A DNA stretch of 28,381 bases from a virus. Taxonomy: Duplodnaviria > Heunggongvirae > Uroviricota > Caudoviricetes. The stretch is taken from IMG/VR virus record IMGVR_UViG_2909251562_000002; one strand, 5' to 3'. Of this stretch, positions 1,230-19,321 are shown piece after piece. Below the pieces are notes generated by a model. The model was given only the letters and a program-made list of their open reading frames with translations, ran no database searches and was not told where the DNA came from. A program made the position numbers and the translations under genes. Each line of letters opens with the position of its first letter. Within the stretch, counting starts at the first letter, position 1.

Positions 1230-1801
1230 CTGTTCTCCAATGACTAGTCTAAAAACTAGTATTAAGACTATCACTTATTTAAGTGATATTGGTTGTCTGG
1301 AGATTCAGGGGGCCAGTCTAGTCCCATATATGCCCCAAAAAAACTCCCCAACAGATAAGTAGTTTTTTCATGGATTTATGCGTAAAATCAAGAACGGCTG
1401 GAAATCATTCAATACTCACACTATCGAAAAATTTACCAGCCAACCGCAGCACGTTCTTGCATAAGGCGTGTCTGCGGTTTTTCAACTATTCAGATACATC
1501 ACTCCCATCACATTCATTCCTCCGCATCAAAGGCATATAGGCTATATCACCTTGATATTTTTCTTTTTCAGATAAAAACTGTTATCTATGTATACTTTTA
1601 AACCCAATCCGTGTAGAGTCTCTGCATAAGATAGTTTGCAGTTGCCGCTTCAGCTTGCGCCATAAACCGCCTGATTTTTGCTGCCACCAGTTAGCATTCC
1701 TGTATACCTGAAACGACAATGTTTATCTACGAACTTTAAGAACACCCAGGATAAAAATTGTCAACTATATCATATATAACACATTACTAATTCGAGGCTA
1801 T

Positions 1802-1915
1802 ATGAACAGCATACTGATAATCACATCTCTCCTTATCATATTCAGCATTTTTAGTCATGCCCTAATAAAATTAGGGATTGGCATATCCAATAACCCAGAC
1901 AAAACCGATGTATAA
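1802..1915 (+). CDS. Candidate small hydrophobic protein, 37 aa ([37 protein letters not shown])
   Basis: Manual translation; ATG preceded by GAGG about 5 nt upstream; one predicted transmembrane helix. Below the ORF-track size cutoff. Confidence 0.25.
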
Positions 1916-1983
1916 GTCAACATATCCTGAATCAGACATACAATATCGCAATGAAAATCAATAATATTTTAAGGAATATCTTC

Positions 1984-2217
1984 ATGAAATCAAAAGACAC
2001 CCTAAAGTGGTTCCCTGCGCAGCTTCCTGAAGTAAGAATTATCCTAGGCGATGCTGTAGTGGAAGTAGCAAAACAGGGAAGACCTATCAATACCAGAACA
2101 TTGCTTGATTACATTGAAGGAAACATAAAGAAAAAATCATGGCTGGATAACAAAGAATTATTACAAACAGCGATATCAGTTCTTAAAGACAACCAAAATT
2201 TAAATGGTAAAATGTAA
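1984..2217 (+). CDS. ydfK: YdfK/YnaE-family small prophage protein, 77 aa from MKSKDTLKW
   Basis: Internal ATG with AAGGA upstream; sequence and position beside pin match the remembered ydfK/ynaE pair. Alternative upstream ATG at 1951. Confidence 0.6.
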   Translation: MKSKDTLKWFPAQLPEVRIILGDAVVEVAKQGRPINTRTLLDYIEGNIKKKSWLDNKELLQTAISVLKDNQNLNGKM

Positions 2218-2533
2218 TATAATAAACTTACTTTTTTATCATTTTTCCACTTTAACAACATTTTGCTCCACTTTTCCACGACCAAACAACTTGAAATCTG
2301 GTTAAAATAACACGCAACACTATTCTTCTTCCTTGAGTCCGCCCGGAACTCGAAAAACAAACCGAGTTAAAGCCATTTTTCACAAAATCGATTTTGGGTC
2401 TCACCAAAATTACGGGGTTGCATACGCATTCGTTTATTTTCGAACGTGTACATACAAATATGCACAAAAATAATCATAATTATTTTCTGAGATGCATTAT
2501 GATATGAACACCAATTTCGTATAGAGTCTCACT

Positions 2534-3124
2534 ATGTCTCGAATTTTTGCTTACTGTCGGATATCAACGCTGGATCAGACCACCGAAAATCAACGCCGGG
2601 AAATCGAAAGTGCAGGTTTTAAAATCAAACCTCAGCAAATAATCGAAGAACACATTAGCGGCTCAGCAGCAACCAGTGAGCGTCCTGGTTTTAACCGGTT
2701 GCTTACTCGCCTGAAATGTGGTGATCAATTGATTGTGACAAAACTGGATCGCCTTGGTTGTAATGCAATGGATATCAGGAAAACAGTGGAACAACTGACC
2801 GAAACAGGTATCAGAGTGCATTGCTTAGCATTGGGTGGCATTGACCTGACCAGTCCAACAGGAAAAATGATGATGCAAGTAATTTCAGCAGTCGCTGAAT
2901 TTGAACGAGACCTTTTACTTGAACGCATTCATTCCGGGATAGTAAGAGCCCGCGGCGCAGGGAAACGTTTTGGTCGACCACCTGTGTTAAATGAAGAACA
3001 GAAACAGGTGGTATTCGAACGAATTAAGTCAGGTGTAAGTATAAGTGCCATTGCCCGGGAATTCAAAACCTCGCGGCAAACCATTTTAAGAGCCAAAGCA
3101 AAACTTCAGACACCTGACATATAA
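2534..3124 (+). CDS. pinQ: Serine DNA invertase (Pin/Gin/Hin family), 196 aa
   Basis: N-terminal catalytic serine region (YCRISTLDQ), resolvase core and C-terminal HTH; length and context match PinQ. Confidence 0.88.
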
Positions 3125-3221
3125 AAAATAATCTCGGTGTGAGATGCTTTACGTCTTCCAAGCCCCCTTCCTTGCCGTAAATGGAAAGATACATCTAATT
3201 ATAGAATTTATATGTTTTACC

Positions 3222-3395
3222 CTACGGCAGTGCTGGCCATTCAATATCCGGTACTACTGATGTATTAACACGGTTCAGCAACACCCGATACTTTTTCCAG
3301 ACTTCCAGCAACGAAGTTTCTTCCTCCGTTGCGATTTCCAGCTCAACAACAGTCTGAACGTACCAGGAACAGCCTCCTTCAGGGCTTGAAGGATA
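3222..3395 (-). pseudogene. Orphan 3' remnant of a tail fiber assembly gene (tfa), 57 codons with no start codon
   Basis: Manual translation directly after the stf TGA, in the same frame: [57 protein letters not shown], resembling the conserved lambdoid Tfa C-terminus. Confidence 0.55.
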
Positions 3396-6300
3396 TCAAT
3401 GTTCGCTTCCTGTTAACTGCCCGACAAGTGCAACCAGTTCGCTTACCTGATTTTCCAGAGTGCTGATCCGGGTGCCTGCTGTTGCCAGATTTTTACGTAG
3501 CGTTATGTTTTCCTCTTCCAGCGCGGTAACGCGACCATCTGTTTCACGGGCGACCTGAACAAGTAACCCCGTCACGGCGGCGTAGTCAACATTCAGATAA
3601 CGTGTTTCTTCACGTAATTCATTGCCGTCAACCGTTGGTCCCTGCAACTCTTCACCGTAATGAGTAAACGATCCCACAGCTTCTGGTATCGCCTCCATTA
3701 CTTCCTGTGCAATAACGCCAGCATAAGGCATCCCGTTTTCCCTGAGCGTGTAGGTGTATCCGTTCATTTTACGGATTGCTTTCGTCGCGTCGCTGATAAC
3801 GAGAATATCGTCTTTAAGGTCGCGGTCTGATGACTGATTCAGCGTTGTGCAATTAATAGCGCCATTTACATCAAACAACTGGCCTGCTGACGTTTTTTGC
3901 GCATAAAACAGATACGCAGCAGACGTTCCAACCTCAAAAACGTTTTGTCGATCACTTGATCCCCATACTTTTGCGGCAAATGATAGTTCTGTATTACCTA
4001 AGTTCTGTAAAACAAAACGATTTCCAGTCCCTGTTTGTTTTGTAAGAGTTAAATCAACAGTTGAGTTAACCTCATCCTTGTTGATAGTGAGCGCCTGCGC
4101 TTTAGCCCCGTTAACAGCACCTGTTTTGAGTTGAACCGCGCCGTCATTACCATTTAACAGTATCTCAGCTCCGCTAAAGAAATTTTTTAGCGACAGCATC
4201 TTACTTACGCCGACTGATGAACCCAACGCCCACGCGAGAGAATTACCGGTGCTATCAAACCCACGTACAAAGCAATCCATTTTGCTATAGTCTGACGTGC
4301 TTCCAAGGACATCAATTCGCCCTCCGCCAGATTTTACCGGGTTAGATGTGGTTAATGACCTGACAGCAAGATCGGTAGATGAATTGAGATCGTCTACTGT
4401 TAGTAATTTCTTCCATTCCTGCGTCGTTCCATTTTCAATTGTTCTTCCCCAAAAACCGGAATTGCGGCCTCCGAACTGCACAGCATAATTTTTACTAAAT
4501 TGAACATGAATGCCGCCAAGAACCATAGAACCTGCCGGGCCGTTTGTACTGCCTGCAATTGGTATAAATTTATTAATGTTATCAGTATGCTGCGTGTTCC
4601 AGTCTCGTCCTGTTTTTGTAAGCAGTCCTAATGTCGTGTCGAGCGCTTCGGTTAAAGTAAGGTTTTTAAATTTAACTGCGCTACTTTCGCCAAGACTTAA
4701 GTTGTTTCGCGCATCTTCTACTGTTGTCGCACCTGTACCTCCTTGCCCAACAGCTAATGGCAACCAGCCAGTGCCATTATGACAACCCCACAAACCAGAT
4801 TTGGAAACCTGTAAGCGTGGTGCGCCTGAAGAATACGTAGAATATACGTAAGTTGTTTCTTTTCCCTCTTCAACCCTTTCTGTTGATACATCTCTCTTCC
4901 ATTCAGACCAGGTACCGCTACCTCCTTCATATATTCGTCTATAAGTAATTCCCGGATTATTATAAGGGTAGTACACCTGAACGCAGGAAGAAGCAGTGTT
5001 GGCTCTCGTTTGGAGCACTATTAAAGCGCCCGCCAGACCGATTGGGTAATTTAATTCTTCTGTTGCGTAAGCGCTCGTTGGTTGTTGATAGAAACCAGAA
5101 TATTCACCGGTAAGGGTGTTTAGGTCAGTATTAGCAAGGCCAGCTTTTTGCTCATACATTACCCGCAAGTTCGCACGTGCTTGCTCGATAGTTCTTCCAC
5201 CAGTACCGCCCTGGGCTAAACCTAACGGAGACCATTGTCCAGAAGAAGAATCATAACCCCCCCAACTCCCGTTAGTATGGATTTCAAAGAAACGATCACC
5301 AGTTGGACCATACATACGAGTTGTTGATTCATTTTGACCAAAGCGGCTTAATTCATCTCTGCGGGTATGACGTATCCATTGCGGGCCAGAACTTTGGCTG
5401 TAAATGTACGAATACAATGATTTTGTATCTGAACCAACAAATAGACCGGAATATCTTTTTGTTGACACTTCTGATCTAACTATATAACCAGAAATAAGAT
5501 TATCCCCGGCACTAGACGCTACTGATGGATAACCTTTCGCTGAGATGTAAATCCTGATAAATCCAATATAACCTGATGGCTCAACAGAGATATCAGTGCA
5601 GGTCATGGCAACTTCACCAAGACCAATATTGTTACCAACAACGGATTGTGCCTGGTTGCGATAATTAAGTGCGTCCGCTGCAGATTTCGCCGCGTTTGTT
5701 TCACTGGATTTAGCATTAGTTTCGCTGCTCTTTGCTGCTGCCTCGCTATTTTTCGCGTTGGTTTCTGATTTTTTGGCTGCTGTCGCGGAGTTTGCCGATG
5801 CAGTTTGTGAGGCCGCTGCCGCCTGTGCGCTGTTATCCGCATTCGTCTCAGACGTTTTTGCGGCCTTCGCGGAATTTCCTGCCGCCGTTGCCGAAGAGGC
5901 TGCACTACTGGCGCTCGAGGCTGCGCTCGTTTCTGATGATTTCGCTGCCTCTTTTGAGGCCGCCGCATCCCGGGCTGAGGTGGCAGCTTCTGACGCTTTC
6001 GTGGTCGCGGTGGATGCAGAAGTGGCTGCAGATTTTTGTGACGCTGCAGCATTCGTTTCTGACGTTTTCGCCGCACCGGCACTGGTAGCTGCCGCGCTTT
6101 TTGAGGACTCTGCAGCGGCAGCACTTTTTTCCGCTTCAGTGGCCTTTGTTGATGCCGTTCCTGCGCTGGAAGACGCTGACTGAGCCGACGAAGCGGCCTG
6201 TCCGGCTGACGTGCTGGCTGCGCGTGCTGAGCCTGCAGCATCAGTCGCATGGGTTGCCGCCTCACGGGCAGATGTGCCGGCATCGCCGGCTGACTTCTTC

Positions 6301-6680
6301 GCGGCTGCCGTGTTCTGTGCCACCGCGGACGCGTTACGCGCCACCTCTTCCACCATCAGTTCAAAACGGCGCAGAGCCTCCGGACGGGCATCATCCTCCG
6401 TCATGGCACCGAGAAAATCATTCAGCGTACCGGGTCGGGAATCTTCATACACGGTGATGGTCCCGGCATGTGACGGCGGGAATCCTTCCACCAACAGAAT
6501 AACGCTGTACTGACCGTACTCAACGTCCATGCTGTAACGCCCGGCTTCATCCGGATTTTCTGAGGCCAGCGTGTTCACCACCACCGCGGTGCTGTTACGT
6601 TTTGCTTTCAGCTGGATTGTGCAGTTCTGTACCGGTTTTCCTGTGCCGTCTTTCAGTACACCTGAAATCTTTACTGCCAT
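3396..6680 (-). CDS. stf: Side tail fiber protein (lambda Stf-like N-terminus) with Ala/Ser-rich repeats and a C-terminal intramolecular chaperone-like domain
   Basis: N-terminus MAVKISGVLKDGTGKPVQNCTIQLKA matches lambda Stf; C-terminal SDRDLKDDI...NGYTYTLRENG...GVIAQEV then a coiled coil; ATG at 6678-6680 with GGGG upstream (track starts at GTG 6686). Confidence 0.9.
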   Translation of the reverse strand: MAVKISGVLKDGTGKPVQNCTIQLKAKRNSTAVVVNTLASENPDEAGRYSMDVEYGQYSVILLVEGFPPSHAGTITVYEDSRPGTLNDFLGAMTEDDARPEALRRFELMVEEVARNASAVAQNTAAAKKSAGDAGTSAREAATHATDAAGSARAASTSAGQAASSAQSASSSAGTASTKATEAEKSAAAAESSKSAAATSAGAAKTSETNAAASQKSAATSASTATTKASEAATSARDAAASKEAAKSSETSAASSASSAASSATAAGNSAKAAKTSETNADNSAQAAAASQTASANSATAAKKSETNAKNSEAAAKSSETNAKSSETNAAKSAADALNYRNQAQSVVGNNIGLGEVAMTCTDISVEPSGYIGFIRIYISAKGYPSVASSAGDNLISGYIVRSEVSTKRYSGLFVGSDTKSLYSYIYSQSSGPQWIRHTRRDELSRFGQNESTTRMYGPTGDRFFEIHTNGSWGGYDSSSGQWSPLGLAQGGTGGRTIEQARANLRVMYEQKAGLANTDLNTLTGEYSGFYQQPTSAYATEELNYPIGLAGALIVLQTRANTASSCVQVYYPYNNPGITYRRIYEGGSGTWSEWKRDVSTERVEEGKETTYVYSTYSSGAPRLQVSKSGLWGCHNGTGWLPLAVGQGGTGATTVEDARNNLSLGESSAVKFKNLTLTEALDTTLGLLTKTGRDWNTQHTDNINKFIPIAGSTNGPAGSMVLGGIHVQFSKNYAVQFGGRNSGFWGRTIENGTTQEWKKLLTVDDLNSSTDLAVRSLTTSNPVKSGGGRIDVLGSTSDYSKMDCFVRGFDSTGNSLAWALGSSVGVSKMLSLKNFFSGAEILLNGNDGAVQLKTGAVNGAKAQALTINKDEVNSTVDLTLTKQTGTGNRFVLQNLGNTELSFAAKVWGSSDRQNVFEVGTSAAYLFYAQKTSAGQLFDVNGAINCTTLNQSSDRDLKDDILVISDATKAIRKMNGYTYTLRENGMPYAGVIAQEVMEAIPEAVGSFTHYGEELQGPTVDGNELREETRYLNVDYAAVTGLLVQVARETDGRVTALEEENITLRKNLATAGTRISTLENQVSELVALVGQLTGSEH
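5650..6300 (-). repeat. In-frame degenerate tandem repeats encoding an Ala/Ser/Thr-rich tract (AAKxSETNA-like units) within stf
   Basis: Repeated DNA units of about 27 nt visible on the plus strand; the protein shows KSSETNA / KTSETNA / KKSETNA repeats. Confidence 0.8.
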
Positions 6681-6689
6681 ATTCACCCC

Positions 6690-6718
6690 ACAAAAAAGCC
6701 CGCCTGAACCGGCGGGCT
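6690..6718 (-). terminator. Candidate intrinsic terminator between lom and stf
   Basis: Hairpin GCCCGCC...GGCGGGC (6697-6718) followed on the minus strand by a T-run, ending a few nt before the stf ribosome-binding region. Confidence 0.45.
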
Positions 6719-6744
6719 GTCATAACACTGTGTTACCTGGCTAA

Positions 6745-7299
6745 TCAGAATTTATAACCAACACCAACGATGAACCCGTCAGTGCGCCAGTCGCCACTGC
6801 CGGAGCCTTCATAAGCGACATCAATGGCCACGGATTCGGTCGGGTTAAACTGCACGCCAGCCCCCCACGCCAGAGACGTGTTGCTGTGGCGACCGTCATC
6901 ACTTCCGGTCAGCACATCGTGCGTTTTCCCCTTGTTGTCAGTTACGCGGAGATAATCTCCGGAGAAAGTCGACACACGGCTGTAAGCCATACCCGCCATC
7001 GCATACGCGCTGAACCATTCATTCACGCGCACAGACGGCCCCGCCATTACGCTGAACCAGCGGTTACGAACGGAATCTTCATGCCAGCGGGTATCGCTGT
7101 AACGGGTCAGCTGGCGATTCTTGTCTCCTGCATAGCTGAATGACGTCACCATCCCCAGTGTGTCCGTAAACTCATAGCGGTATTTCACGTTAATCCCGTT
7201 CAGATCATCGCTGCCGGGAACGTTCGTCGAGGCATGAAGATACCCCGCGCTCAGCGTGGCCTGCTGCTCAGACGCCCATGCAGGCGCACCGGATACCAG
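6745..7299 (-). pseudogene. lom: lom (Ail/Lom outer-membrane protein), 5'-truncated: start codon and most of the signal peptide are missing
   Basis: Translation matches lambda Lom from ...VSGAPAWASEQQATLSAGYLHAS to the C-terminal GVGYKF; upstream in-frame residues diverge from Lom and hit a stop at 7333-7335. Confidence 0.85.
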
Positions 7300-7573
7300 T
7301 CCTTTCTCTCTTTCGGCTCCATACGGGATGGATCATGAACAGAGTCTGCTGCCTCATGCTTCACACTAAACAGGGCTGGCCCGACATGCTGCAGGGCGTA
7401 AACGGGGTTCCCCCTGACAGTCGCAGCCACAGGAGTGTTGGCCGCGAGAAGCCGTTTTTTTACTGTGTCCCGGTGAAGCCCAAAGGCCTCAGCGATTTTA
7501 AAAACACTCCAGTAATAAGCATCACCGATCCCGCTCACATTTGACATAAGCAACTCCATCTGGCAGGTGAAAA
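7300..7573 (-). pseudogene. Fragment of a Nu1-like terminase small subunit gene (about 90 N-terminal codons), fused to lom by deletion and separated from its ATG by IS66
   Basis: Segment ...YYWSVFKIAEAFGLHRDTVKKRLLAANTPVAATVRGNPVYAL has the layout of the lambda Nu1 N-terminal helix-turn-helix; the ancestral ATG is at 10282-10284 about 150 bp from the cos-like site. Confidence 0.45.
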
Positions 7574-7626
7574 GTAACCGGCTCATTTAAACCGTCTGGT
7601 CTGTTTCCTCCGGCTCTACAAAAATA

Positions 7627-8304
7627 ATGTCCATCATTTTTAATGGACACTATCGTATGAAACACCGGACCTGGATCACTGAAGCTTTACGTCTTCACTT
7701 TGAAGAACATTTACCCCGGGTTGTGGCCGGGCGTCGCCTGGGTGTACCAAAATCAACAGTTTGTAGTATGTTCGTGCGCTTTCGGAGAGCTGGCCTTTCG
7801 TGGCCTTTGCCCGCAGGCATGTCGGAGCAGGAACTTGATGCCTGCCTTTACGGACAATTTTCCACGGTACCAGTCGTACGTCCTGAAAGCACCGTTATAT
7901 CCGAAGCCCCCGTGGTAAAAAAACGTCCCCGGCGGCCCAACTTCCCTTATGAGTTTAAAATCGCCTTAGTGGAGCAGTCACTGCAGCCCGGAGCCTGTGT
8001 GGCGCAGATCGCCCGGGAAAACGGAATCAACGATAACCTGCTCTTCAACTGGCGCCATCAATACCGGAAAGGTGGCCTGCTGCCTTCCGGAAAAAATATG
8101 CCGGCACTGCTTCCCGTGACGTTAACGCCGGAGCCGGATAATAAAATCCCGGCCCCCGCACAGGAACCAGAGCAGATAAATACACCGTCCGACAGTCTGT
8201 GTTGTGAGCTGGTTCTGCCGGCCGGAACTCTCAGGCTTAAAGGTAAACTGACGCCGGCGTTATTACAGACACTTATCCGCGAAATAAAAGGGAGCAGCCA
8301 CTGA
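7627..8304 (+). CDS. IS66-family accessory protein TnpA (orf1), 225 aa
   Basis: C-terminal region (KIALVEQSLQPGACVAQIARENGINDNLLFNWRHQYRKG) is typical of IS66 orf1; stop overlaps the tnpB ATG (TGATG). An internal start at 7657 is possible. Confidence 0.75.
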   Translation: MSIIFNGHYRMKHRTWITEALRLHFEEHLPRVVAGRRLGVPKSTVCSMFVRFRRAGLSWPLPAGMSEQELDACLYGQFSTVPVVRPESTVISEAPVVKKRPRRPNFPYEFKIALVEQSLQPGACVAQIARENGINDNLLFNWRHQYRKGGLLPSGKNMPALLPVTLTPEPDNKIPAPAQEPEQINTPSDSLCCELVLPAGTLRLKGKLTPALLQTLIREIKGSSH

Positions 8305-8651
8305 TGATATCTCTCCCTGCAGGTTCGCGTATCTGGCTGGTTGCAGGTATCACCGATATGCGAAATGGCTTTAACGGCCTGGCATCAAAAGTTCAGAACG
8401 TCCTGAAGGATGACCCGTTCTCCGGACACCTGTTCATCTTCCGCGGACGCCGGGGTGACCAGATAAAAGTGTTGTGGGCTGACAGTGACGGACTGTGCCT
8501 CTTCACCAAACGCCTGGAGCGGGGCCGCTTCGTCTGGCCAGTCACCCGTGACGGCAAGGTGCACCTTACTCCGGCTCAGTTATCCATGCTTCTTGAAGGT
8601 ATCAACTGGAAGCACCCGAAACGAACGGAACGCGCTGGAATCCGCATATAA
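8304..8651 (+). CDS. IS66-family TnpB (orf2), 115 aa
   Basis: Conserved IS66 orf2 sequence (MISLPAGSRIWLVAGITDMRNGFNGL...). Confidence 0.9.
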   Translation: MISLPAGSRIWLVAGITDMRNGFNGLASKVQNVLKDDPFSGHLFIFRGRRGDQIKVLWADSDGLCLFTKRLERGRFVWPVTRDGKVHLTPAQLSMLLEGINWKHPKRTERAGIRI

Positions 8652-8670
8652 CCCGTTGTAAAGTGAGGAT

Positions 8671-10242
8671 ATGGACACCTCACTTGCTCATGAGAACGCC
8701 CGCCTGCGGGCACTGTTGCAGACGCAACAGGACACCATCCGCCAGATGGCTGAATACAACCGCCTGCTCTCACAGCGGGTGGCGGCTTATGCTTCCGAAA
8801 TCAACCGGCTGAAGGCGCTGGTTGCGAAACTGCAACGTATGCAGTTCGGTAAAAGCTCAGAAAAACTTCGTGCAAAAACCGAACGGCAGATACAGGAAGC
8901 ACAGGAGCGAATCAGCGCACTTCAGGAAGAAATGGCGGAAACGCTGGGTGAGCAATATGACCCGGTACTGCCATCCGCCCTGCGCCAGTCTTCAGCCCGT
9001 AAACCGTTACCGGCCTCACTTCCCCGTGAAACCCGGGTTATCCGGCCGGAAGAGGAATGCTGTCCTGCCTGTGGTGGTGAACTCAGTTCTCTGGGATGTG
9101 ATGTGTCAGAGCAACTGGAGCTTATCAGCAGCGCCTTTAAGGTTATCGAAACACAACGTCCGAAACTGGCCTGTTGTCGGTGCGACCATATCGTGCAGGC
9201 ACCAGTACCTTCAAAACCCATTGCACGCAGTTATGCCGGAGCGGGGCTCCTGGCCCATGTCGTCACCGGAAAATATGCAGACCATCTGCCGTTATACCGC
9301 CAGTCAGAGATATACCGCCGTCAGGGTGTGGAGCTGAGCCGTGCCACACTGGGGCGCTGGACAGGTGCCGTTGCTGAACTACTGGAGCCGCTGTATGACG
9401 TCCTGCGCCAGTATGTGCTGATGCCCGGTAAAGTCCATGCTGATGATATCCCCGTCCCGGTCCAGGAGCCGGGCAGCGGTAAAACCCGGACAGCCCGGCT
9501 GTGGGTCTACGTCCGTGATGACCGTAACGCCGGTTCACAGATGCCCCCGGCGGTCTGGTTCGCGTACAGTCCGGACCGGAAAGGTATCCATCCACAAAAT
9601 CACCTGGCCGGTTACAGCGGTGTGCTTCAGGCCGATGCTTACGGTGGTTACCGGGCGTTATACGAATCCGGCAGAATAACGGAAGCCGCGTGTATGGCTC
9701 ATGCCCGGAGAAAAATCCACGATGTGCATGCAAGAGCGCCCACCGACATCACCACGGAAGCCCTGCAGCGTATCGGTGAACTGTATGCCATCGAGGCAGA
9801 GGTCCGGGGCTGTTCAGCAGAACAGCGTCTGGCGGCAAGAAAAACCAGAGCCGCGCCACTGATGCAGTCACTGTATGACTGGATACAGCAACAGATGAAA
9901 ACACTGTCGCGTCACTCAGATACGGCAAAAGCGTTCGCATACCTGCTGAAACAGTGGGATGCACTGAACGTGTACTGCAGTAATGGCTGGGTGGAAATCG
10001 ACAACAACATCGCAGAGAACGCCTTACGGGGAGTGGCCGTAGGCCGGAAAAAGTGGATGTTCGCGGGTTCCGACAGCGGTGGTGAACATGCGGCGGTGTT
10101 GTACTCGCTGATCGGCACATGCCGTCTGAACAATGTGGAGCCAGAAAAGTGGCTGCGCTACGTCATTGAACATATCCAGGACTGGCCGGCAAACCGGGTA
10201 CGCGATCTGTTGCCCTGGAAAGTTGATCTGAGCTCTCAGTAA
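8671..10242 (+). CDS. IS66-family transposase TnpC (orf3), 523 aa
   Basis: N-terminal leucine zipper, CPACGG...C...CxxC zinc motif and catalytic region; ATG with GTGAGGA upstream. Confidence 0.9.
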
Positions 10243-10434
10243 ATATCAATACGGTTCTGACGAGCCGCTTACGGTGAAAATCATGTTTATTTATATATTT
10301 CAATTAATTGTAAACTGGTCTAATGACAGGGAGAAAAAAATATTGTACAGGTAAAAAGATAAATAACTTTTAATTATCAATAAATTACCAAACATGCTGC
10401 CGCCGCCATGGAAATGCAAAAACTAGCCTTTTTC

Positions 10435-10455
10435 CGCGACGCTCCCGCCCCGTGG
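10435..10455 (-). other. Candidate cos site (cosN-like) of the prophage
   Basis: Minus strand reads ACGGGGCGGGAGCGTCGCGG against lambda ACGGGGCGGCGACCTCGCGG (15 of 20, from memory); lies about 150 bp upstream of the Nu1-like ATG, as in lambda. Confidence 0.35.
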
Positions 10456-10630
10456 CAGGGGCCCCCACCGGGAGGACCCGACAGCCTGACAGCCGTGATG
10501 AGCATCTGATACAGCGCTTTACATAATGGCATAGGAATAATTCAGAAGGACATCACAGCATGCCCACACAAATTAGTGTGAGTGTCCTGTTTCTTCCTAC
10601 GCACAGGACTGACGAGCATGAGGGGAAAAT

Positions 10631-10798
10631 ATGCGAACCATAAATGCCTCATCTTCAGCAATGCAACCGGCATCCGAACAGGACGATATTGTAAATTCAC
10701 CTAATTACGAGGACATTGCAGTAGTTGAATTGCAGCTCTGTATTAGCCTGACAGTGACAGAATGCGATATTGACTCTGTCACAGGTGAAATAGTTTGA
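10631..10798 (+). CDS. Hypothetical small acidic protein, 55 aa
   Basis: Manual translation (MRTINASSSAMQPASEQDDIVNSPNYEDIAVVELQL...); GAGGGGA ribosome-binding site 5 nt upstream of the ATG. Confidence 0.35.
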   Translation: MRTINASSSAMQPASEQDDIVNSPNYEDIAVVELQLCISLTVTECDIDSVTGEIV

Positions 10799-10818
10799 AT
10801 GATTAGCAGTTATGGTGC

Positions 10819-11025
10819 TCAGTCAACCACCAGGGAATAATCCTTCGAATTCTTATCGTGCTTCACCAACGCTGCCTCAATTGCCCTGAATGCTTCCAGA
10901 GACACCTGATGTTCTATACATGCAATTACAACATCCGGGTAACTCATAGAAATGGTGCTATTAAGCATATTTTTTACACGAATCAGATCCAACGAGAGTT
11001 CATCAGCAGATTGTTCTTTATTCAT
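10819..11025 (-). CDS. Hypothetical small prophage protein, 68 aa
   Basis: ORF track; non-repetitive protein-like composition; family not recognised. Confidence 0.4.
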
Positions 11026-11325
11026 TTTGTCGCTCCATGCGTTTGCTCGTCATCTAGCGGTTAAAATATTACTTCAAATCTTACTGCATAAAAGAGGAAA
11101 AGTATGAAAGTTTGAGTACATCGACCTTACATACATCTGTCGGTTGCATATCCCTCCTGGATGCCAGCAAGGCTCAATTTTGTTACGCAATCAACACTAT
11201 TCATTAAAAACAGGCTTAATATTTGACATAAATCATCAACAAAACACAAAGAGGTCAGACCAGATTGAAACAATAAACACGATAATGCTAACTACGCGCC
11301 ATCGTATCACATGGAAGGTTTACCA

Positions 11326-11757
11326 ATGGCTCAGGCTGCCATTTTTAAAGAAATATTCGATCAAGTGCGTAAAGATTTAAACTGTGAATTATTTTATTCT
11401 GAGCTAAAACGTCACAATGTCTCACTTTATATTTACTATTTAGCCACAGATAATATTCACATTGTGTTAGAAAACGACAACATAGTGTTAGTAAAAGGAC
11501 TCAAAAAGGTTGTAAATGTTAAATTCTCCAGAAACAAACATCTTATAGAGACCTCCTATAATAAGTTGAAATCAAAAGAAATCACATTTCAACAATACAG
11601 GGAAAATCTTGCTAAAGCAGGAGTTTTCCGATGGGTTACAAATATCCAGGAACACCAAAGATATTACTATGCCTTTGATAACTCATTACTATTTACTGAA
11701 AGCATCCAGAAAATTACTGAAAGCATCCAGAAAACTACACAGATCTTACCACGCTAA
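11326..11757 (+). CDS. YdfO-like prophage protein, 143 aa from [11 protein letters not shown], carrying a 7-aa tandem duplication near the C-terminus
   Basis: Position next to gnsB as in Qin; GAAGG upstream of the second ATG; family name from memory and uncertain. Confidence 0.5.
11695..11736 (+). repeat. Direct tandem duplication, 2 x 21 bp (ACTGAAAGCATCCAGAAAATT / ...ACT), in-frame ([14 protein letters not shown])
   Basis: Read directly from the sequence; 20 of 21 identical. Confidence 0.95.
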
Positions 11758-11908
11758 ACCATAACGTCCGGCTTCTCTCACTCCTGAGCCGGACTGCATT
11801 GGTTTAATAAAAACCATCAACAATTGTGATTTAGATATTCGGAACCATTCAAATATAACAAAACCCCGTAAAAACGAGGTTTATGGATAAATTTTATTAT
11901 TGAATACA

Positions 11909-12085
11909 TCAGATTAAATTAATCTTGACATCATAGCTTTCAAGACCCGTCATTTTTTCCCGTGCGGTAAACTGAATACTGGTAACTTCTTTCCCGGTCT
12001 TTTTCTTAAGTTCAATAATTTTTTTTGTTATATATTCAGAAATATCTGCTTCTGCTTTTGTTTTTAAGTCTTCAATATTCATCAT
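11909..12085 (-). CDS. gnsB: GnsA/GnsB-family protein, 58 aa (MMNIEDLKTKAEADISEYITKKIIELKKKTGKEVTSIQFTAREKMTGLESYDVKINLI)
   Basis: Manual translation (below track cutoff); matches the remembered GnsA/GnsB family. Confidence 0.75.
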   Translation of the reverse strand: MMNIEDLKTKAEADISEYITKKIIELKKKTGKEVTSIQFTAREKMTGLESYDVKINLI

Positions 12086-12253
12086 TTCCTCTTTTAGTCT
12101 GTTATGACTTTCCAGTTACACAGTAAGTCGATTATATGGTGCAAACGTGTAAAAGATAAGATGAAACATCGCAATAATCAACATACGATAGTCTAAATTT
12201 TACACAAACAGACAAAGAGAATTTTCCTGAATTATCAATGCAATAGCATCAAA

Positions 12254-12484
12254 TCAACTCAAGAGCCTTATTGCTGCTTCCAGAATTTCTTCTGAAGTAA
12301 CATGTCGATCCGCGGCTACATAAATGACTTTATGATCTCCGGTCAGAGATGGAAACCCTGCGGCCATTACAGTAAGGTGTGTTTTTTCGCCATTTGGATA
12401 TTCACGCATGATGGTGTTAACTCCAGTCATCGCTGGCACTACCACTGCTGGTTCAGAGTTAAAAAAAACTATGATTTTTTTCAT
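12254..12484 (-). CDS. Small prophage protein, 76 aa from MKKIIVFFNSEPAVVVPAMTG (possibly YnfN-like)
   Basis: ORF track with internal Met; position between gnsB and cspI matches ynfN in K-12; identity unverified. Confidence 0.4.
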   Translation of the reverse strand: MKKIIVFFNSEPAVVVPAMTGVNTIMREYPNGEKTHLTVMAAGFPSLTGDHKVIYVAADRHVTSEEILEAAIRLLS

Positions 12485-12525
12485 GATGTTACCGTAGTAT
12501 GTGAGTATCCATCGAATAGACACCA

Positions 12526-12550
12526 AGCAAAAAAGCTCCCGAAGGAGCCT
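12526..12550 (-). terminator. Intrinsic terminator downstream of cspI
   Basis: Hairpin GCTCC-CGAA-GGAGC followed by a T-run on the minus strand. Confidence 0.6.
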
Positions 12551-12755
12551 TCATTTTCACTTTTTTAAATCCAACGACAGACGGCTGGCATTTAAGTATT
12601 GTGAAATATTATCAAATGTAATCATCATTGATTTACAAAAGATACATTTTGCCCCGAAAGGATTCATGTCAGAAACATCAAAAGATGATGTTCTATACTG
12701 GGAACCATGACAACACGGGCATCTAAAGTGAATATGGTTTGTAATATTGTCTACC

Positions 12756-12968
12756 TCAAAGCGCCACTACATGAACAGCGGCAGGACCTTTAGGTCCGTT
12801 CTCAATACCAAATTCAACTTCCTGATTCTCAGTTAATGTTTTGAAATCGTTGCTCTGAATTGCTGAGAAATGGACAAACACATCTTTGCTGCCATCTTTC
12901 GGCGTGATGAAACCAAAACCTTTTTCAGGGTTAAACCATTTCACTAAACCAGTCATTTTGTTAGACAT
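12756..12968 (-). CDS. cspI: Cold shock protein (CspA family), 70 aa
   Basis: [34 protein letters not shown] with RNP1/RNP2 motifs; matches CspI from memory. Confidence 0.9.
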
Positions 12969-13329
12969 AATTATTACCTTTTGAAGAAATTAGCCCTTGG
13001 GCAGAATGGTCCGAAAAAAATATCAGAGAGAAAAACCAACAAGGAAATCTCAAGAGGTACAAATAATAAAATTATAACAATGACTGCTTCAGATAAATTT
13101 GTAACAAACCAGAACACCATTAACGCATGATTAACCACCCATAGCAAGGATTACTTTTGTAAAGAAAAACACAGCAATGAAAGAATAGCTTTATTTATTA
13201 ATAAAACGTGTCATTCTGATTAAGACCTTTTATCTTACCCTTAAGATTTCAGGAATTTTGGCTCATGGAAGAGTCCTTTTTATTCAAATTTTACATTCCG
13301 CGATGTAAATGTTCCGATTTAATATTACC

Positions 13330-14353
<1,024 letters not shown>

Positions 14354-14357
<4 letters not shown>

Positions 14358-14665
14358 AGATATTTATGATGAGGACGCTCGTGCTTATTGGCAGGATTTT
14401 CAATCTTAAAGGAGTACTGATGCTGCAGATAAGACTCAACTTTTTCTGACAATTTTTCTGCTACTTCCAGGAAGACTTGCCGGACGCTCCTTCTGGCTGC
14501 TGCCTCATAAAACTCCAGCGCAGCTCCTTCAACACGGTCCATGGCGACATCCAGGTCAAAAATTTCACCGTCAAAGCGTTCTTTGTCCTGTAAGGCTACA
14601 GTTACCGTAACTTTATTCTCAAAATTACGGACTCCTTTCACAACCAGTTCATAGTCTTGAGTCAT
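14354..14665 (-). CDS. ydfR: YdfR-like protein of the lysis cassette, 103 aa
   Basis: Size and position between holin and endolysin match K-12 ydfR; stop overlaps the endolysin start. Confidence 0.6.
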
Positions 14666-14669
14666 TGGA

Positions 14670-14885
14670 TTACTCTCCTCTCGCAGCCTTACGCCTGTCT
14701 TCTTTAATCTTGAAATAAAGATTTGTCAGATACGTCAGCAGGCCAAAAACCAGGCTACCCAGCACACCGATTGCAGCCCACTGTGACGGAGTTACTTTAT
14801 CGAGTAACTGCAATGCCCAGAAACCAGCATTACCCGCCGATGTGCCATAGGCAACACCTGTTGTTAACTTATCCATTGATTTCAT
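14670..14885 (-). CDS. essQ: Holin, 71 aa from MKSMDK (dual-start motif)
   Basis: GAGGA ribosome-binding site; two transmembrane segments; charged C-terminus [13 protein letters not shown]; track start at 14960 is probably artefactual. Confidence 0.85.
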
Positions 14886-15104
14886 ATCCTCACCCCGATG
14901 TACACGGATGGTGCAATATGTTTGAAAAGATCGGAGTCTACGGGGTAGTTTTGACAGCACACGTTGTTCTCAACGGCGCTAAAAAAACATACACATTAAA
15001 AATGTGGGTAATTATTTTGAAAGAAAGTCATATATAAAATAATAATACGAGAAATGTTTTCATATTTAGTGTACTGTATACGGCCATTTATACAGGAAAA
15101 GCCT

Positions 15105-15275
15105 ATGTCAGAACGTAAAAACTCAAAATCACGCCGTAATTATCTCGTTAAATGTTCCTGCCCAAACTGCACCCAAGAGTCAGAACACAGTTTTTCAAGA
15201 GTACAAAAAGGTGCCCTTTTGATCTGCCCTCATTGCAACAAAGTATTCCAGACAAATCTTAAAGCTGTAGCCTGA
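15105..15275 (+). CDS. Small zinc-ribbon protein, 56 aa (CSCPNC...CPHC)
   Basis: Two CxxC pairs; antisense to the late operon between holin and cspB; no strong ribosome-binding site. Confidence 0.4.
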   Translation: MSERKNSKSRRNYLVKCSCPNCTQESEHSFSRVQKGALLICPHCNKVFQTNLKAVA

Positions 15276-15332
15276 TTGATTTTATTAGTAACAAGTATTT
15301 TTTATATTTTAATAATATATTTAAAGCAGATA

Positions 15333-15356
15333 ATAAAAAACCCGCCTGAGCGGGTT
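15333..15356 (-). terminator. Intrinsic terminator downstream of cspB
   Basis: Hairpin CCCGC-CTGA-GCGGG with a T-run on the minus strand (plus strand AAAAAACCCGCCTGAGCGGGTTTG). Confidence 0.7.
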
Positions 15357-15638
15357 TGAGATTGTGGTGCTTTTTGTGGGAGTCATCCACTTACGCACTT
15401 TGTTTTGCCATGCCAGCAGTTAGCTTCTGCTGTAAAACTATTCATGCAGCAAACCTGCACTTCACCACAATGGTTAGCATACTTTTCCTGATTAAGATTT
15501 TGCCAAATATGCTAGCCATTGTTTCATGTATTGGACCTCCTTACTTTTTATTAAAGAGATCCAATATTCACTACTCTGTCCGTATCTCTACTCAGGCATC
15601 AGCCTTCTTCGTTATCGTATACAGACGAGCGATGAATT

Positions 15639-15854
15639 TTAATCAGTAATGATGACATTTGCTGCTGCAGGACCTTTAGCACCACTCTCTATAGAGAAGG
15701 TAACCTTTTGACCTTCAAATAAGGTTCGATAATTATCATTCTGAATCGCAGAAAAATGCACAAACACATCTTTACTACCATCAACAGGAGAAATAAAGCC
15801 GAAACCTTTATCAGCGTTAAACCATTTTACTAAACCAGTCATTTTATTTGACAT
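15639..15854 (-). CDS. cspB: Cold shock protein CspB, 71 aa
   Basis: [34 protein letters not shown]; long AT-rich upstream leader. Confidence 0.93.
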
Positions 15855-16154
15855 TCTACATTCCTTAACTTGAGCCTTTCGGCATAAATGGTTTGCATAA
15901 CAGAAACGACTTCGTACTTAATTGGAGAGACTCAAAGAAGGAATAAGTGAATAACACCTGAAATGAGAACTGCTTTAGTAAACTACTTCGTATATCGTCT
16001 GTTCTTCAAACCGACGCAATCATTAACGCATAGTTGAACATATGAAGCAATGTTTATTTTAGACATCCAGCCATCTTCAACCCCATCAAAAAACTATAGC
16101 TTTCTTCAGGAACGTGTGTATAGTGCGCCAAGTTATCAGTATTAAGGAATTTTT

Positions 16155-16367
16155 TTGTCCCGTAAAATGACAGGAATTGTCAAAACCTTTGACGGCAAAA
16201 GCGGCAAGGGTCTTATCACCCCATCCGATGGTCGTATCGATGTCCAGCTTCATGTTTCAGCGCTCAATCTCCGCGATGCAGAAGAAATTACCACCGGATT
16301 ACGCGTGGAATTTTGCCGGATAAATGGTCTGCGTGGCCCTTCAGCTGCCAATGTTTACCTTTCATGA
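16155..16367 (+). CDS. cspF: Cold shock-like protein CspF, 70 aa
   Basis: [34 protein letters not shown]; divergent from cspB as in K-12; apparent TTG start. Confidence 0.88.
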
Positions 16368-16421
16368 GCTATATTAAAGCTTTAATTTCAGGCCCCATCG
16401 GATCACACATGGAGAGTTTTT

Positions 16422-16511
16422 ATGAATAACCCCGTCTGTCTTGATGACTGGTTGATTGGCTTTAAAAGCTTATGCTGTACTTTGGCCGTAATAGCTCTGC
16501 TAATAATATAA
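16422..16511 (+). CDS. Candidate small hydrophobic protein, 29 aa ([29 protein letters not shown])
   Basis: Manual translation; GGAGAG ribosome-binding site 8 nt upstream of the ATG; C-terminal transmembrane segment. Confidence 0.25.
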
Positions 16512-16652
16512 TAAGCAGACTCATTGTGTTTAGGGACATTGTACTGGAAGAAAACATTTTAAACATCAGGCAAATAACCAAGTCACCAGCTAAATAATAA
16601 GTTAACAGACATGAGTCCCGGGATGAGATTCAACATTACCATTGCCCCATTT

Positions 16653-16692
16653 AAAGCACAAAACCCGCTCATCAGCGGGTTTTCTACTTTTT
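16653..16692. terminator. Bidirectional intrinsic terminator; on the minus strand the tR'-like terminator of the short late leader transcript
   Basis: Hairpin CCCGCT-CATC-AGCGGG flanked by an A-run on the left and a T-run on the right; about 65 nt downstream of the PR'-like promoter. Confidence 0.65.
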
Positions 16693-16728
16693 CTTAACGT
16701 CGGGTATACAAAGCCCATCGTTGAAAAA

Positions 16729-16757
16729 ATTTTATCCATATTTTTTGAAAAATGCAA
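16729..16757 (-). promoter_or_regulatory. Late promoter (PR'-like) just downstream of Q, expected to hold the Q-utilisation site
   Basis: Minus strand TTGCAT, 17-bp spacer, TAAAAT; lies between the Q stop and the tR'-like terminator. Confidence 0.6.
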
Positions 16758-16788
16758 ACATCATGTCGCCATCTTCAGCAAAAATCAT

Positions 16789-17541
16789 TTATCTCGTCAC
16801 CTTCCTCAATTGCGCTTCCGCGTATGCTTCTTCCTGCCAGCACTTTGTTACCAGTTTACCAATGACGTCCGCATACCCCTTATACCACTGATAATCGGTC
16901 AGGTCTGGTACCAGCTTCTGGACATGACGTCGTGCCAGCGTGGTCGGTAAACGACTAAACCGGTTTCCATTACAACGCCCACAAATCTTATATACCGGTA
17001 CGCCATGAAACCGGGTTCTTTTTTCATCCAGAACAATCCCTTTACCCTTACACCCTCTGCACGCTGTGCTGGCTTCGCCCTTACCATGGCAATGCTGACA
17101 TAGTTCCTTCACCCATTCTTCCTTGATTACAGATTCCCCGCGTCTGTAGTGTTTCACCACTTCGCGCAATACATTATAAAATCCCGTACCTGAACAATGC
17201 TCACAGCGAGCCTTACTTGCCGCAGACCTGGAGTAATCAGCAAAGGCAAAACTCACGAGGTAAGGAATAATCTGTAACCGGATTTCTTCACTCAATTTGT
17301 TCAATGTCGGGTTATCCAGTGCCATCGCGTAATTTAGCAGGCCTTCAATCGCAAACTGAGGGTCCTGAACACCAACTTTTGCCAGAAATAAGGCCAACCC
17401 AAGTGGTGCTTTCGACTGCACCATCCCCTGCGCTGCCATTACATCCGTAATTGTTAAACAACCGGTGCCTGTCGCTGGAGCGTCATCGCTCAATTTTGGA
17501 GATTTTGGGGAGTAATATTTTGGTAAGGCTTCAAGGTTCAT
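16789..17541 (-). CDS. quuQ: Late-gene antitermination protein Q, 250 aa from MNLEAL
   Basis: Cys-rich zinc motif (CEHCSGTG...CQHCHGKG...CRGCKGKG); GGAGA ribosome-binding site before the internal ATG. Confidence 0.9.
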   Translation of the reverse strand: MNLEALPKYYSPKSPKLSDDAPATGTGCLTITDVMAAQGMVQSKAPLGLALFLAKVGVQDPQFAIEGLLNYAMALDNPTLNKLSEEIRLQIIPYLVSFAFADYSRSAASKARCEHCSGTGFYNVLREVVKHYRRGESVIKEEWVKELCQHCHGKGEASTACRGCKGKGIVLDEKRTRFHGVPVYKICGRCNGNRFSRLPTTLARRHVQKLVPDLTDYQWYKGYADVIGKLVTKCWQEEAYAEAQLRKVTR

Positions 17542-17554
17542 GCTCGTTCTCCAC

Positions 17555-18604
17555 TTACGCCAGTACGCCAATTGCCAGCGCGCGATCGATAAAACGAAAT
17601 ATCAGCTCCAGTTGGGAGCCATACTTATCTTCAAATGCCACTGTATCCGTATGCAGCTCGTTGTGATGCTTTCTGCACAAAGGCAACACAAAGAGATCAT
17701 GTGCTTTTGTTCCCATTCCGCCCTGCCCGTGACCAATCAGATGATGCGGATCGTCGGCTGGCATACCGCAGCAAGCACACGGCTGTGTCTTAACCCAACG
17801 TGTGTATTTCTCCTTAACCCAGCGGCGACGTTTAGGCAGCTTCATGAAAGATTCCGGAGACTCTGGATCAACGGTGATGCTTACCACCGTCTTTTCCTGT
17901 GGTGATTTTTGTTGCTGGTGGGCGTAAGGCAACGGTGCAAGATTTTTTGTGCGTTGTTTCAATATGCTGGTGGCGGTCTGCTCTCCCGGTACGATGTCGC
18001 TTTCGCGGTACACCGAGCAGATTTTTTCCGCTGGTAATCCCAGCGAACGACGCGATACAGCCTCAGGTAGTGCATCCACCACCTGATTGCAGACCGCCCA
18101 CCAGGATAATTCAGCCAAAGATAATTCCCGCTCCTGCGTACCGCTTATTGCGTGACGGATGACGTCAATCACCCATGCTGTCAGATTTTGTTGAGCAAGC
18201 AGCTCCAGTGATTCCGATGTCTGGTCACGCAGTTGGTTGTCGCAGTGCCAGCACAACACCATTGCGCCGGTACCATAACGGTGAATGACTGTTTCAGTGT
18301 GATGGTAATCGCCATTAGGCCACTGGCAGGATGTAACATGACGTAATAGCCAGTCGGACAATGCGCCAACGCCGCCAGCAGCACGAATCACCCGTTCGTT
18401 ACTAAAAAACGGCAGCAATGTTTTGTCTTCCGCCATCGGCTGGCGAACGGCAGGAACGACTCCGGATGGCAGATTACGCATGCTTTTTGGTTCCGGTTCC
18501 ACCAGCACTCGAGGATTATGAAATATCTGTATGGATTCACGGCCCGGCTTAAGGACCACCAGCCCAAGCTCAGGCACCAGAACAGGTCTAAGTAATACCC
18601 GCAC
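17555..18604 (-). CDS. ydfU: YdfU-like protein with a C-terminal NinG/Rap-like Cys/His nuclease motif, about 349 aa from a GTG start
   Basis: C-terminal CACCG...HHLIGHGQGG...CRKHHNELH; start placed at GTG 18602-18604, one nt after the stop of the upstream ORF; the track alternative extends to 18643. Confidence 0.7.
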   Translation of the reverse strand: MRVLLRPVLVPELGLVVLKPGRESIQIFHNPRVLVEPEPKSMRNLPSGVVPAVRQPMAEDKTLLPFFSNERVIRAAGGVGALSDWLLRHVTSCQWPNGDYHHTETVIHRYGTGAMVLCWHCDNQLRDQTSESLELLAQQNLTAWVIDVIRHAISGTQERELSLAELSWWAVCNQVVDALPEAVSRRSLGLPAEKICSVYRESDIVPGEQTATSILKQRTKNLAPLPYAHQQQKSPQEKTVVSITVDPESPESFMKLPKRRRWVKEKYTRWVKTQPCACCGMPADDPHHLIGHGQGGMGTKAHDLFVLPLCRKHHNELHTDTVAFEDKYGSQLELIFRFIDRALAIGVLA

Positions 18605-18605
18605 G

Positions 18606-18884: not shown

Positions 18885-18950
18885 CGGTTTTCTCCGGTGG
18901 CACGGTGTTACTCAGCGGGAGTTCAGCCCCGCGCAAGATTGTAGATGAGT

Positions 18951-19202: not shown

Positions 19203-19321
19203 CAGAATCCTTCCGGATAATTAGCTCTCCCCTTTAAGGGACCATCCCTCTTATCCCTGCGCGCTACTTAAGTATTTTTGATTCTATTCCGGCACCGTCC
19301 AGAACTTCAAACGCGTTGAAA

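Follow-up and report, generated by a model that had tools for sequence, protein, structure and literature searches.

The intact references for the locus described here are phage cdtI (AB285204 / NC_009514) and the full-length prophage of E. coli strain W2-5, which sits at the same chromosomal site, flanked by rspB and ydfJ'; the comparison with W2-5 is therefore one between alleles of one locus. The order of genes in the W2-5 prophage is gnsB, a DUF1398 gene, a small hypothetical gene, a DUF1441 gene, the large terminase gene (terL), a small ORF and portal, followed by a protease/capsid fusion, head–tail and tail genes, the tape measure gene, M/L/K/I-like genes, J, Lom and the tail fibre. In both cdtI and W2-5 the DUF1441 gene is the first after cos and adjoins terL on its upstream side. 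The first gene of cdtI, encoding the identical protein, was annotated as 'putative small terminase subunit'; its ATG is located at base 197 and the CDS of the depositors runs from 185. The large terminase encoded next to the DUF1441 gene in W2-5 contains GpA_ATPase and GpA_nuclease domains, and this partner was of the gpA type where checked.

The window (the whole stretch of 28,381 nucleotides that was analysed, IMG/VR record IMGVR_UViG_2909251562_000002) is, as judged from gene content and chromosomal flanks, the cryptic prophage Qin, located between ydfJ' and rspB in a small group of E. coli strains. Strain 67-1 has the identical locus, and the identification was based on its annotation by PGAP and on the alignment to K-12 MG1655. 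The ydfJ/rspB site and the set characteristic of Qin (dicBF, relBE, hokD, cspB/F/I, essQ-rrrQ-rzpQ) were all found. The Qin genes present comprise pinQ, ydfK, gnsB, cspI, the rzpQ-rrrQ-ydfR-essD lysis genes, cspB/cspF, ydfT, ydfU, rem, hokD, relBE, dicA/dicC, DicF (RNA at 22184-22235), dicB, an exonuclease gene, xis and an IS3-disrupted integrase. Four IS elements are found in the prophage of the window. At about 20405 there is a scar with a 2-bp TA microhomology, where 1.6 kb (flxA-ydfW-ydfX) is missing when compared to K-12; decay by a similar process has thus affected a site in this prophage other than the one discussed below.

The deletion junction

All the genes concerned are encoded on the minus strand. 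Along that strand a cos-like site comes first, then an IS66-family element running in the other direction, an ORF starting from ATG 7547, a lom gene without a start, and stf. The features are as follows.

10439..10450, minus strand: cosN-like 12-mer GGGCGGGAGCGT, presumed cohesive end, equal to bases 1-12 of the cdtI record
10281..10438, minus strand: leader from cosN to terS, resuming at 7548-7565 beyond the IS; 96% identity to cdtI 1-178, colinear in W2-5
10273..10280, no strand: right 8-bp target-site duplication GGTGAAAA, from the W2-5 alignment
7574..10272, plus strand: ISCro1-like element of the IS66 family, 2,699 bp, between cos and the start of terS, from Pfam, PGAP and the W2-5 alignment
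7627-8304, 8304-8651 and 8671-10242, plus strand: tnpA, tnpB and the DDE transposase gene of this element
7566..7573, no strand: left 8-bp target-site duplication GGTGAAAA, single copy in W2-5 and cdtI
7294..7547, minus strand: terS 5' fragment, codons 1-84 and 2 nt of the Tyr85 codon, from DNA identity, Pfam and PHROG
7294..7296, minus strand: deletion junction, from blastn overlap, three-way alignment and probe matches
7251..7293, minus strand: out-of-frame tail PVRLHGRLSSRPR and stop, read from lom DNA, from ORF 7251-7586 and translations
6745..7296, minus strand: lom from codon V17 to the stop (Ail/Lom outer-membrane beta-barrel), from protein alignment and Pfam
3396..6686, minus strand: side tail fibre gene stf, 1,096 aa, the retained distal flank, from the ORF list, PGAP and 95% identity to W2-5 over 5617-7296

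Comparison with W2-5 by blastn revealed two blocks that are adjacent in the window and far apart in the reference. Positions 7294-7573 are 100% identical to W2-5 L002 20280-20001, where the first gene after cos begins, and positions 5617-7296, covering lom from V17 and stf, match L002 40200-38500 with 95.0% identity; beyond the IS, positions 10273-16357 match the W2-5 prophage with 98.6% identity. No counterpart of L002 20281-38502 was detected by blastn anywhere in the window. The absent interval comprises 18,222 bp when W2-5 is the reference and 18,311 bp when cdtI is (breakpoints at positions 450 and 18759 of the latter), and it includes the genes for the large terminase, portal and capsid as well as every tail gene up to and including J. 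The length and identity of the matches at the junction are far beyond chance.

The two W2-5 matches overlap by exactly 3 bp, window 7294-7296 on the minus strand, and the join is therefore a microhomology junction. The shared bases are GTA (TAC on the plus strand), common to the parental sequences of both sides. The terS-side parent reads ...GGACTGGTA|CCAGTCTG at the join (starting CCAG after the bar) and the lom-side parent reads ...CTGGCCGTA|TCCGGTGCG (starting TCCGG after the bar), and the window sequence across the join is GGACTGGTATCCGGTGCG. In the three-way alignment of these printed flanks no bases besides GTA were common to both parents at the join. The breakpoint is thus located in codons 84/85 of terS and in codon 17 of lom. 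The first-pass annotation, made from the letters of the window, had proposed an internal deletion running from the terminase gene to lom with loss of the head and tail-shaft genes, and the colinearity of W2-5 and cdtI with both flanks bears this out. It had suggested placing the breakpoint by alignment to intact lambdoid genomes; these two references put it at 7294-7296, within the region but not at the exact position (7290) then given, and at lom codon 17, close to the 'about 18' of that proposal.

The junction is restricted to a few genomes. At 100% identity, the whole 6745-7626 stretch was found by megablast in 5 of 5,426 complete E. coli genomes (67-1, TW11681, WS1933D, S1-NGR-02-A and LR883000), whereas the lom part alone or the upstream part alone is present in thousands of them. 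A 131-nt probe across the junction was also compared with phage and plasmid records; none of 150 phage and none of 35 plasmid records spanned the junction, their matches ending at probe position 67 or beginning at 65. The genomes that bear the junction have 8-9 lom-like loci each.

The terS fragment

The ORF starting at ATG 7547 encodes MSNVSGIGDAYYWSVFKIAEAFGLHRDTV... (MSNVSGIGDAYYWSVFKIAEAFGLHRDTVKKRLL...KERKDWY) in a frame other than that of lom. It agrees in every one of its residues 1-85 with the N-terminus of the 175-aa protein of W2-5 and cdtI, and at the DNA level the fragment shows 100% identity to W2-5 L002 20027-20280 and 98.9% to cdtI. After residue 85 the terS and lom frames are out of phase, and the ORF reads lom DNA for 13 codons to a stop at 7251. 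The C-terminal 90 residues of the protein are gone and what is left would encode a putative HTH DNA-binding region. The parts of Nu1 with which the missing 90 residues align are responsible for self-association and gpA binding. PGAP labels the DUF1441 gene as 'incomplete; missing C-terminus'. Single-sequence AlphaFold2 prediction of the 98-aa ORF gave a mean pLDDT of 54.6 and was unusable.

The fragment had at first been described as resembling λ Nu1, and a profile search against small-terminase models was proposed. In Pfam the fragment belongs to DUF1441 (PF07278; 58.4 bits with a cut-off of 35.1, and 151.8 bits for the full-length 175-aa relative). Neither the 98-aa ORF nor the 175-aa relative matches Phage_Nu1 (PF07471) even at E <= 10, whereas λ Nu1 and K-12 NohA score 333-336 bits on that model. 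PHROG gives a different picture, since PHROG 141, 'terminase small subunit', is matched by the 85-aa fragment at 4.1e-23 and by the full-length relative at 7.9e-65. The full-length DUF1441 protein also matches PHROG 57 (1e-9), the family of λ Nu1 itself (1.3e-76), and Nu1 cross-matches PHROG 141 at 5.6e-8. The comparison by hhalign of an 8-sequence DUF1441 alignment with an 8-sequence Nu1 alignment gave a probability of 93.7% (E 1.9e-7, 131 columns), pairing DUF1441 residues 12-142 with Nu1 residues 2-153 from the HTH region onward; when the DUF1441 profile was compared with a single Nu1 sequence the probability was only 8.7%. BLASTP between Nu1 and the DUF1441 protein was not significant (E 4.6), nonetheless with the HTH regions in register. 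An NCBIfam scan of the full-length DUF1441 protein returned no family at E <= 1. Searches of PDB sequences with the single protein and with the 8-sequence profile gave no significant match, Nu1 being absent from the results, and the profile found only non-significant wHTH proteins with E about 1. In a literature search the name 'DUF1441' turned up only in phage-annotation papers.

Gene order points in the same direction as PHROG. In all eight phages and prophages examined, the DUF1441 gene is directly upstream of the large terminase gene; homologues upstream of or overlapping terL are found in Gifsy-2, mEp043, Stx2a phage 12E129, Ahp2, H905, Pmp14 and Vibrio PE002B. Ahp2 is an Aeromonas phage, H905 an Aliivibrio phage and Pmp14 a Pasteurella phage. 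The window has lost terL, and of the position of terS only the proximity to cos is visible there. The PHROG 141 match, the cross-matches with Nu1, the hhalign result and the synteny with terL together argue that DUF1441 is the small-terminase family of these cos phages. An alternative assignment is that the fragment derives from an unrelated HTH regulator, in which case the deletion would have begun outside the packaging module. The Pfam family carries the description 'unknown function', and the missing Phage_Nu1, NCBIfam and PDB matches and the weak single-sequence hhalign result speak for such a regulator. Nevertheless, it is made very improbable by the strength of the PHROG 141 match, the reciprocal Nu1–PHROG cross-matches, the profile–profile alignment and the location of the gene in relatives, first after cos and directly upstream of terL. 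We conclude from profiles and synteny that the fragment comes from a small-terminase gene, of which it is the N-terminal half, and that this gene is a remote relative of Nu1 outside the Pfam Nu1 family. The initial 'Nu1-like' label therefore holds for gene position and remote homology but not for Pfam membership, and the search gave no sign of a non-terminase family.

The lom remnant

Only from 7332 onward is there an open lom frame; it reads SIPYGAEREKGLVSGAPAWASEQQ... to GVGYKF, with a stop at 6745. Its match to the full-length Lom proteins of W2-5 and cdtI starts at V17 (VSGAPAWA...), and the beta-barrel part is 92-95% identical to them. The Pfam model Ail_Lom (PF06316) is matched with 364 bits (2.5e-109) at profile positions 17-199 of 199. 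Residues 1-16, the signal peptide (in relatives MRKLYAAILSAAICLA), and the start codon are deleted. The 12 residues preceding V17 (IPYGAEREKGL...) are terS DNA read in the wrong frame; they are charged and stand in place of the signal-peptide residues. In the lom frame there is no ATG, GTG or TTG between 7329 and GTG 7188 (codon 53). A promoter scan of 6600-7800, weak as evidence, found no sigma-70-like site. Two terminator-like hairpins were noticed, one after lom at 6718-6697 and the other inside the IS end. The distal neighbour of lom, stf, is named 'prophage tail fiber N-terminal domain-containing protein' by PGAP.

In the PGAP annotation the lom remnant appears as WP_029379692.1, an intact CDS that begins with ATC at 7329 and carries no pseudogene flag. 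If this model were right, lom would be intact and functional by means of an alternative start, and the accession, the frame open from 7332 and the high identity of the beta-barrel to full-length Lom could be read in its favour. The charged, wrong-frame terS residues substituting for the signal peptide, the absence of a canonical start before codon 53 and the deletion of the native upstream region make it highly unlikely. We consider the model with the ATC start an annotation artefact, and WP_029379692.1 is most likely the product of a pseudogene lacking the signal peptide. The earlier statements that lom matches only from VSGAPAWA and has no start codon are in agreement with these data, and the intact lom with an alternative start that would have spoken against them was not found.

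The cos site and ISCro1

The 12-mer GGGCGGGAGCGT agrees with λ cosN (GGGCGGCGACCT) at 8/12 positions and in both cases CGCGG comes next. The leader between the 12-mer and terS has the position of cosB in λ and phage 21, in the latter of which R3, I1, R2 and R1 are annotated at 50-166. When the IS and one repeat copy are removed, the ATG of terS is base 197 from the first G of the cos 12-mer (191 in λ). A cos-like site had been suspected about 150 bp from the ATG; the site is indeed present, and the distance was mildly underestimated. In the present window the 2,699-bp ISCro1 insertion separates cos from the ATG.

The products of the IS contain the Pfam domains HTH_Tnp_1, TnpB_IS66 and DDE_Tnp_IS66. 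The ends of the element are GTAACCGG.../GTAAGCGG... and the terminal inverted repeats, starting GTAA, are GTAACCGGCTC / GTAAGCGGCTC. In W2-5 and cdtI there is one copy of the duplicated octamer (TTTTCACC on the minus strand), and the sequence is contiguous across the site. Position 7573, with which the first-pass annotation ended its feature, is exactly the last base of the left target duplication. ISCro1 sits 18 nt upstream of the terS ATG, on the late-promoter side.

Origin of the junction

No evidence contradicting a deletion was found. What was observed is the join with the sequences of its two parents, the content that was deleted, the reading frames, the limits of the IS and the occurrence among genomes, and the best explanation for these observations is, with high confidence, a microhomology deletion in a complete λ-like cos prophage whose product is a pure scar. 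The ancestor would have been of the cdtI / W2-5 type, a complete λ-like cos phage in which the genes followed the order cos - terS (DUF1441) - terL (gpA type) - portal - capsid - tail - J - lom - stf. Illegitimate recombination would have joined the GTA in terS codons 84/85 to the GTA at lom codon 17, the likely route being replication slippage or microhomology-mediated end joining. About 18.2 kb would have been excised, presumably in a single event, and the deletion fixed in a narrow lineage. A separate transposition of ISCro1, leaving an intact 8-bp duplication, would have split cos from terS.

That there was 'one' deletion, as initially stated, is the simplest reading, though not a proven one. 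The interval might instead have been lost in successive or nested steps, perhaps with mosaic exchange in lom-stf, and the junction would then record the last event only. The identity of the flanks to the two intact references is uneven, terS being 98.9-100% and lom/stf 95-96% identical. The lower value implies that neither W2-5 nor cdtI is the true parent and that mosaic exchange before or after the deletion is possible. The same contrast between the flanks speaks for a stepwise history, as does the presence in the same prophage of at least one other small deletion scar and of the four IS elements. On the other hand, each breakpoint falls within a gene that shows no further damage before the join, the overlap is 3 bp only, no intermediate form was seen among the 5,426 genomes and one event is more parsimonious, so a stepwise origin is rather unlikely. 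The 8-9 lom-like loci per genome could have supplied many potential partners for recombination between two prophages. This was rejected because the chromosomal flanks, the gene order and the orientation equal those of a single intact prophage at the site, and an assembly artefact was likewise rejected since five complete genomes, each assembled independently, have the identical junction; the chance that either accounts for the join is minimal.

The proximity of an IS66-family element, about 270 bp from the junction, raises the question of an IS-mediated adjacent deletion. Such an event would be expected to leave a breakpoint at the IS end and to destroy the target duplication. Neither is seen: the 8-bp direct duplication is perfect, both flanks are contiguous in W2-5 and cdtI, as after simple insertion, and the join is inside terS, 278 bp from the IS end. 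Because the duplication is intact and the join lies at this distance, the IS is not the maker of the deletion; ISCro1 came by a separate simple transposition, and we regard its involvement as practically excluded.

Consequences of the deletion

The deletion has deprived lom of its promoter region, the start codon and the hydrophobic core of the signal peptide, so that an exported outer-membrane protein can no longer be made from it. Lacking the large terminase, portal, capsid and tail, the prophage can neither package DNA nor form virions, and terS is reduced to 85 native residues with a 13-residue nonsense tail. Both remnants are presumably neither expressed nor functional. Expression of the terS fragment is disfavoured by the position of ISCro1, 18 nt from the ATG and on the side of the late promoter.

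It may also be considered whether cosN, the cosB-like leader and the putative DNA-binding N-terminal fragment of TerS are not inert. If so, the 85-residue fragment could bind cosB of superinfecting cdtI-type phages and inhibit their packaging in a dominant-negative manner, or a helper terminase could begin packaging here at the cos, which looks intact. We give either possibility very little credence. The 85-residue fragment is without the parts aligned to the oligomerisation and TerL-binding regions of Nu1.

The case is one of ordinary prophage decay in a well-known cryptic prophage, with a truncation already partly flagged in RefSeq, and its importance goes little beyond annotation. The Qin of one E. 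coli lineage has lost the ability to make particles by an 18-kb microhomology deletion and IS insertions, and the Pfam family DUF1441 can be read as a small-terminase family related to Nu1.

Comparison with known systems

The terS gene resembles λ Nu1 in being the first gene after cos, in its gpA-type partner and in remote homology over about 130 columns, including the N-terminal HTH. It differs in that the DUF1441 protein has no Phage_Nu1 match and is not aligned significantly by BLASTP, and the cosN 12-mer differs at 4 positions. The likeness to λ Lom/Ail (PF06316) consists in a complete beta-barrel part with the C-terminus of the family, ...GVGYKF; the copy of the window differs in lacking the signal peptide, which makes up the N-terminal 16 residues, and a start codon.

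TerS residues 1-85 of the window are 100% identical to those of cdtI and W2-5. The cos 12-mer and the leader are also shared with these two, as is Lom (92-95%), and on either side of the junction the genes follow the same order. However, both references keep the terL–J module of 18.2-18.3 kb, a 175-aa TerS and a 199-aa Lom with signal peptide, and neither carries the ISCro1 insertion.

The Qin prophage of K-12 (nohA-stfQ-tfaQ, b1548-b1546) occupies the same ydfJ/rspB site, its backbone is 98-99% identical over window 11248-20406 and 1309-3341, and it also has no head or tail-shaft genes between the small-terminase gene and the tail-fibre genes. In the alignment, nothing in K-12 Qin corresponds to window 3342-11247. 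The packaging remnant of K-12 is NohA, a nearly full-length protein of the Nu1 type (189 aa; PF07471, 336 bits), nohA adjoins stfQ with lom absent, and tfaQ and ynfO are also found there, whereas the window holds a DUF1441-type terS cut at codon 85, lom from codon 17 and an stf of 1,096 aa. The packaging remnants of Qin thus vary by strain, being of the Nu1 type in K-12 and of the DUF1441 type here. Judged by these sequences, the Qin of K-12 and that of the window are different decay products, which probably come from different mosaic ancestors.

Annotation of the lom Remnant and of stf

The truncated lom is represented in RefSeq by the PGAP model WP_029379692.1, an intact CDS of 194 aa that opens at a non-canonical ATC start codon (window 7327–7329, minus strand). 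Here a pseudogene has probably been taken for a gene, because the first 12 residues of the model are encoded by frame-shifted terS DNA and the product is without a signal peptide. Misleading reading frames were also found in stf. The tail fibre protein contains a long, repetitive stretch rich in Ala, Ser, and Thr (window 5600–6300, minus strand; ...AAAKKSAGDAGTSAREAATHATDAAGSARAASTSAGQAASSAQ...), which produces a number of long but spurious ORFs on both strands, in frames other than that of stf.

Two features lie at the invertible segment:
2534–3124, plus strand: pinQ, serine recombinase gene, intact
about 3222–3347, adjoining pinQ: fragment of tfa, tail fibre assembly gene, without its N-terminus

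The segment looks degenerate, since the tfa beside the intact pinQ is without its N-terminus. According to a 2025 paper, PinQ of K-12 blocks phage T2 through its trans action on the P segment of e14 (PMC12529663).

Insertions and Repeats Near cos

A related prophage, that of E. coli APEC E12049 (NZ_CP126952.1), carries a separate ISCro1 insertion in the corresponding intergenic region (positions 1385–4053 of locus L009) and retains its terL and portal genes. About 294 bp separate this copy from an intact DUF1441 gene downstream of it, which places the insertion beyond cosN. As it is independent of the insertion in the window, ISCro1 has struck the cos-proximal region at least twice. A small difference in tandem copy number was also observed about 30–45 bp upstream of the cos 12-mer: the window (10480–10495, minus strand, GGCTGTCAGGCTGTC) carries two copies of the 8-bp unit GGCTGTCA, and W2-5, the strain with a full-length prophage at this site, carries three.

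Other Mobile Elements, Deletions, and Structured RNAs

Further IS copies were located in the window:
left end, within 1–1300: IS2 (1–695 is 99.6% identical to K-12 IS2E)
within 25695–28053: IS3 in the integrase gene (PGAP order: Arm-binding part, IS3, C-terminal part)

Strain 67-1, which shares the terS/lom junction, harbors IS1414 (IS256-like) at the site of window 18844–18851, where the two blast segments overlap by 8 bp. The window is without IS1414 and therefore derives from a different member of the same strain group.

Compared with K-12 Qin (locus L004), a further deletion scar is present at 20405–20406, between the remnants of ydfV and dicC, both partial according to PGAP. There, ...GGTCAGGCTA is followed directly by GACGCATCG, fusing L004 position 16107 to 17723 with a 2-bp TA microhomology at the join; about 1.6 kb is gone, comprising flxA, ydfW, and ydfX together with the terminal portions of ydfV and dicC.

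Three Rfam matches above the gathering score were obtained, and both leaders lie near the cspB and cspI genes:
22184–22235, plus strand: DicF sRNA (76.7 bits)
15623–16015, minus strand: cspA-type thermoregulator leader
12729–13113, minus strand: cspA-type thermoregulator leader

Comparison With the K-12 Packaging and Tail-Fibre Remnant

Over their whole length, the Qin packaging and tail-fibre remnants of this lineage (window 3342–11247) and of K-12 (L004 4431–6969) are not homologous, whereas the flanks of this segment are 98–99% identical. The window carries truncated tfa, stf, truncated lom, a truncated DUF1441-type terS, and cos; K-12, in contrast, carries tfaQ, stfQ, the Nu1-type nohA, and ynfO. 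This arrangement reflects either mosaic exchange of a module or independent decay at one locus.
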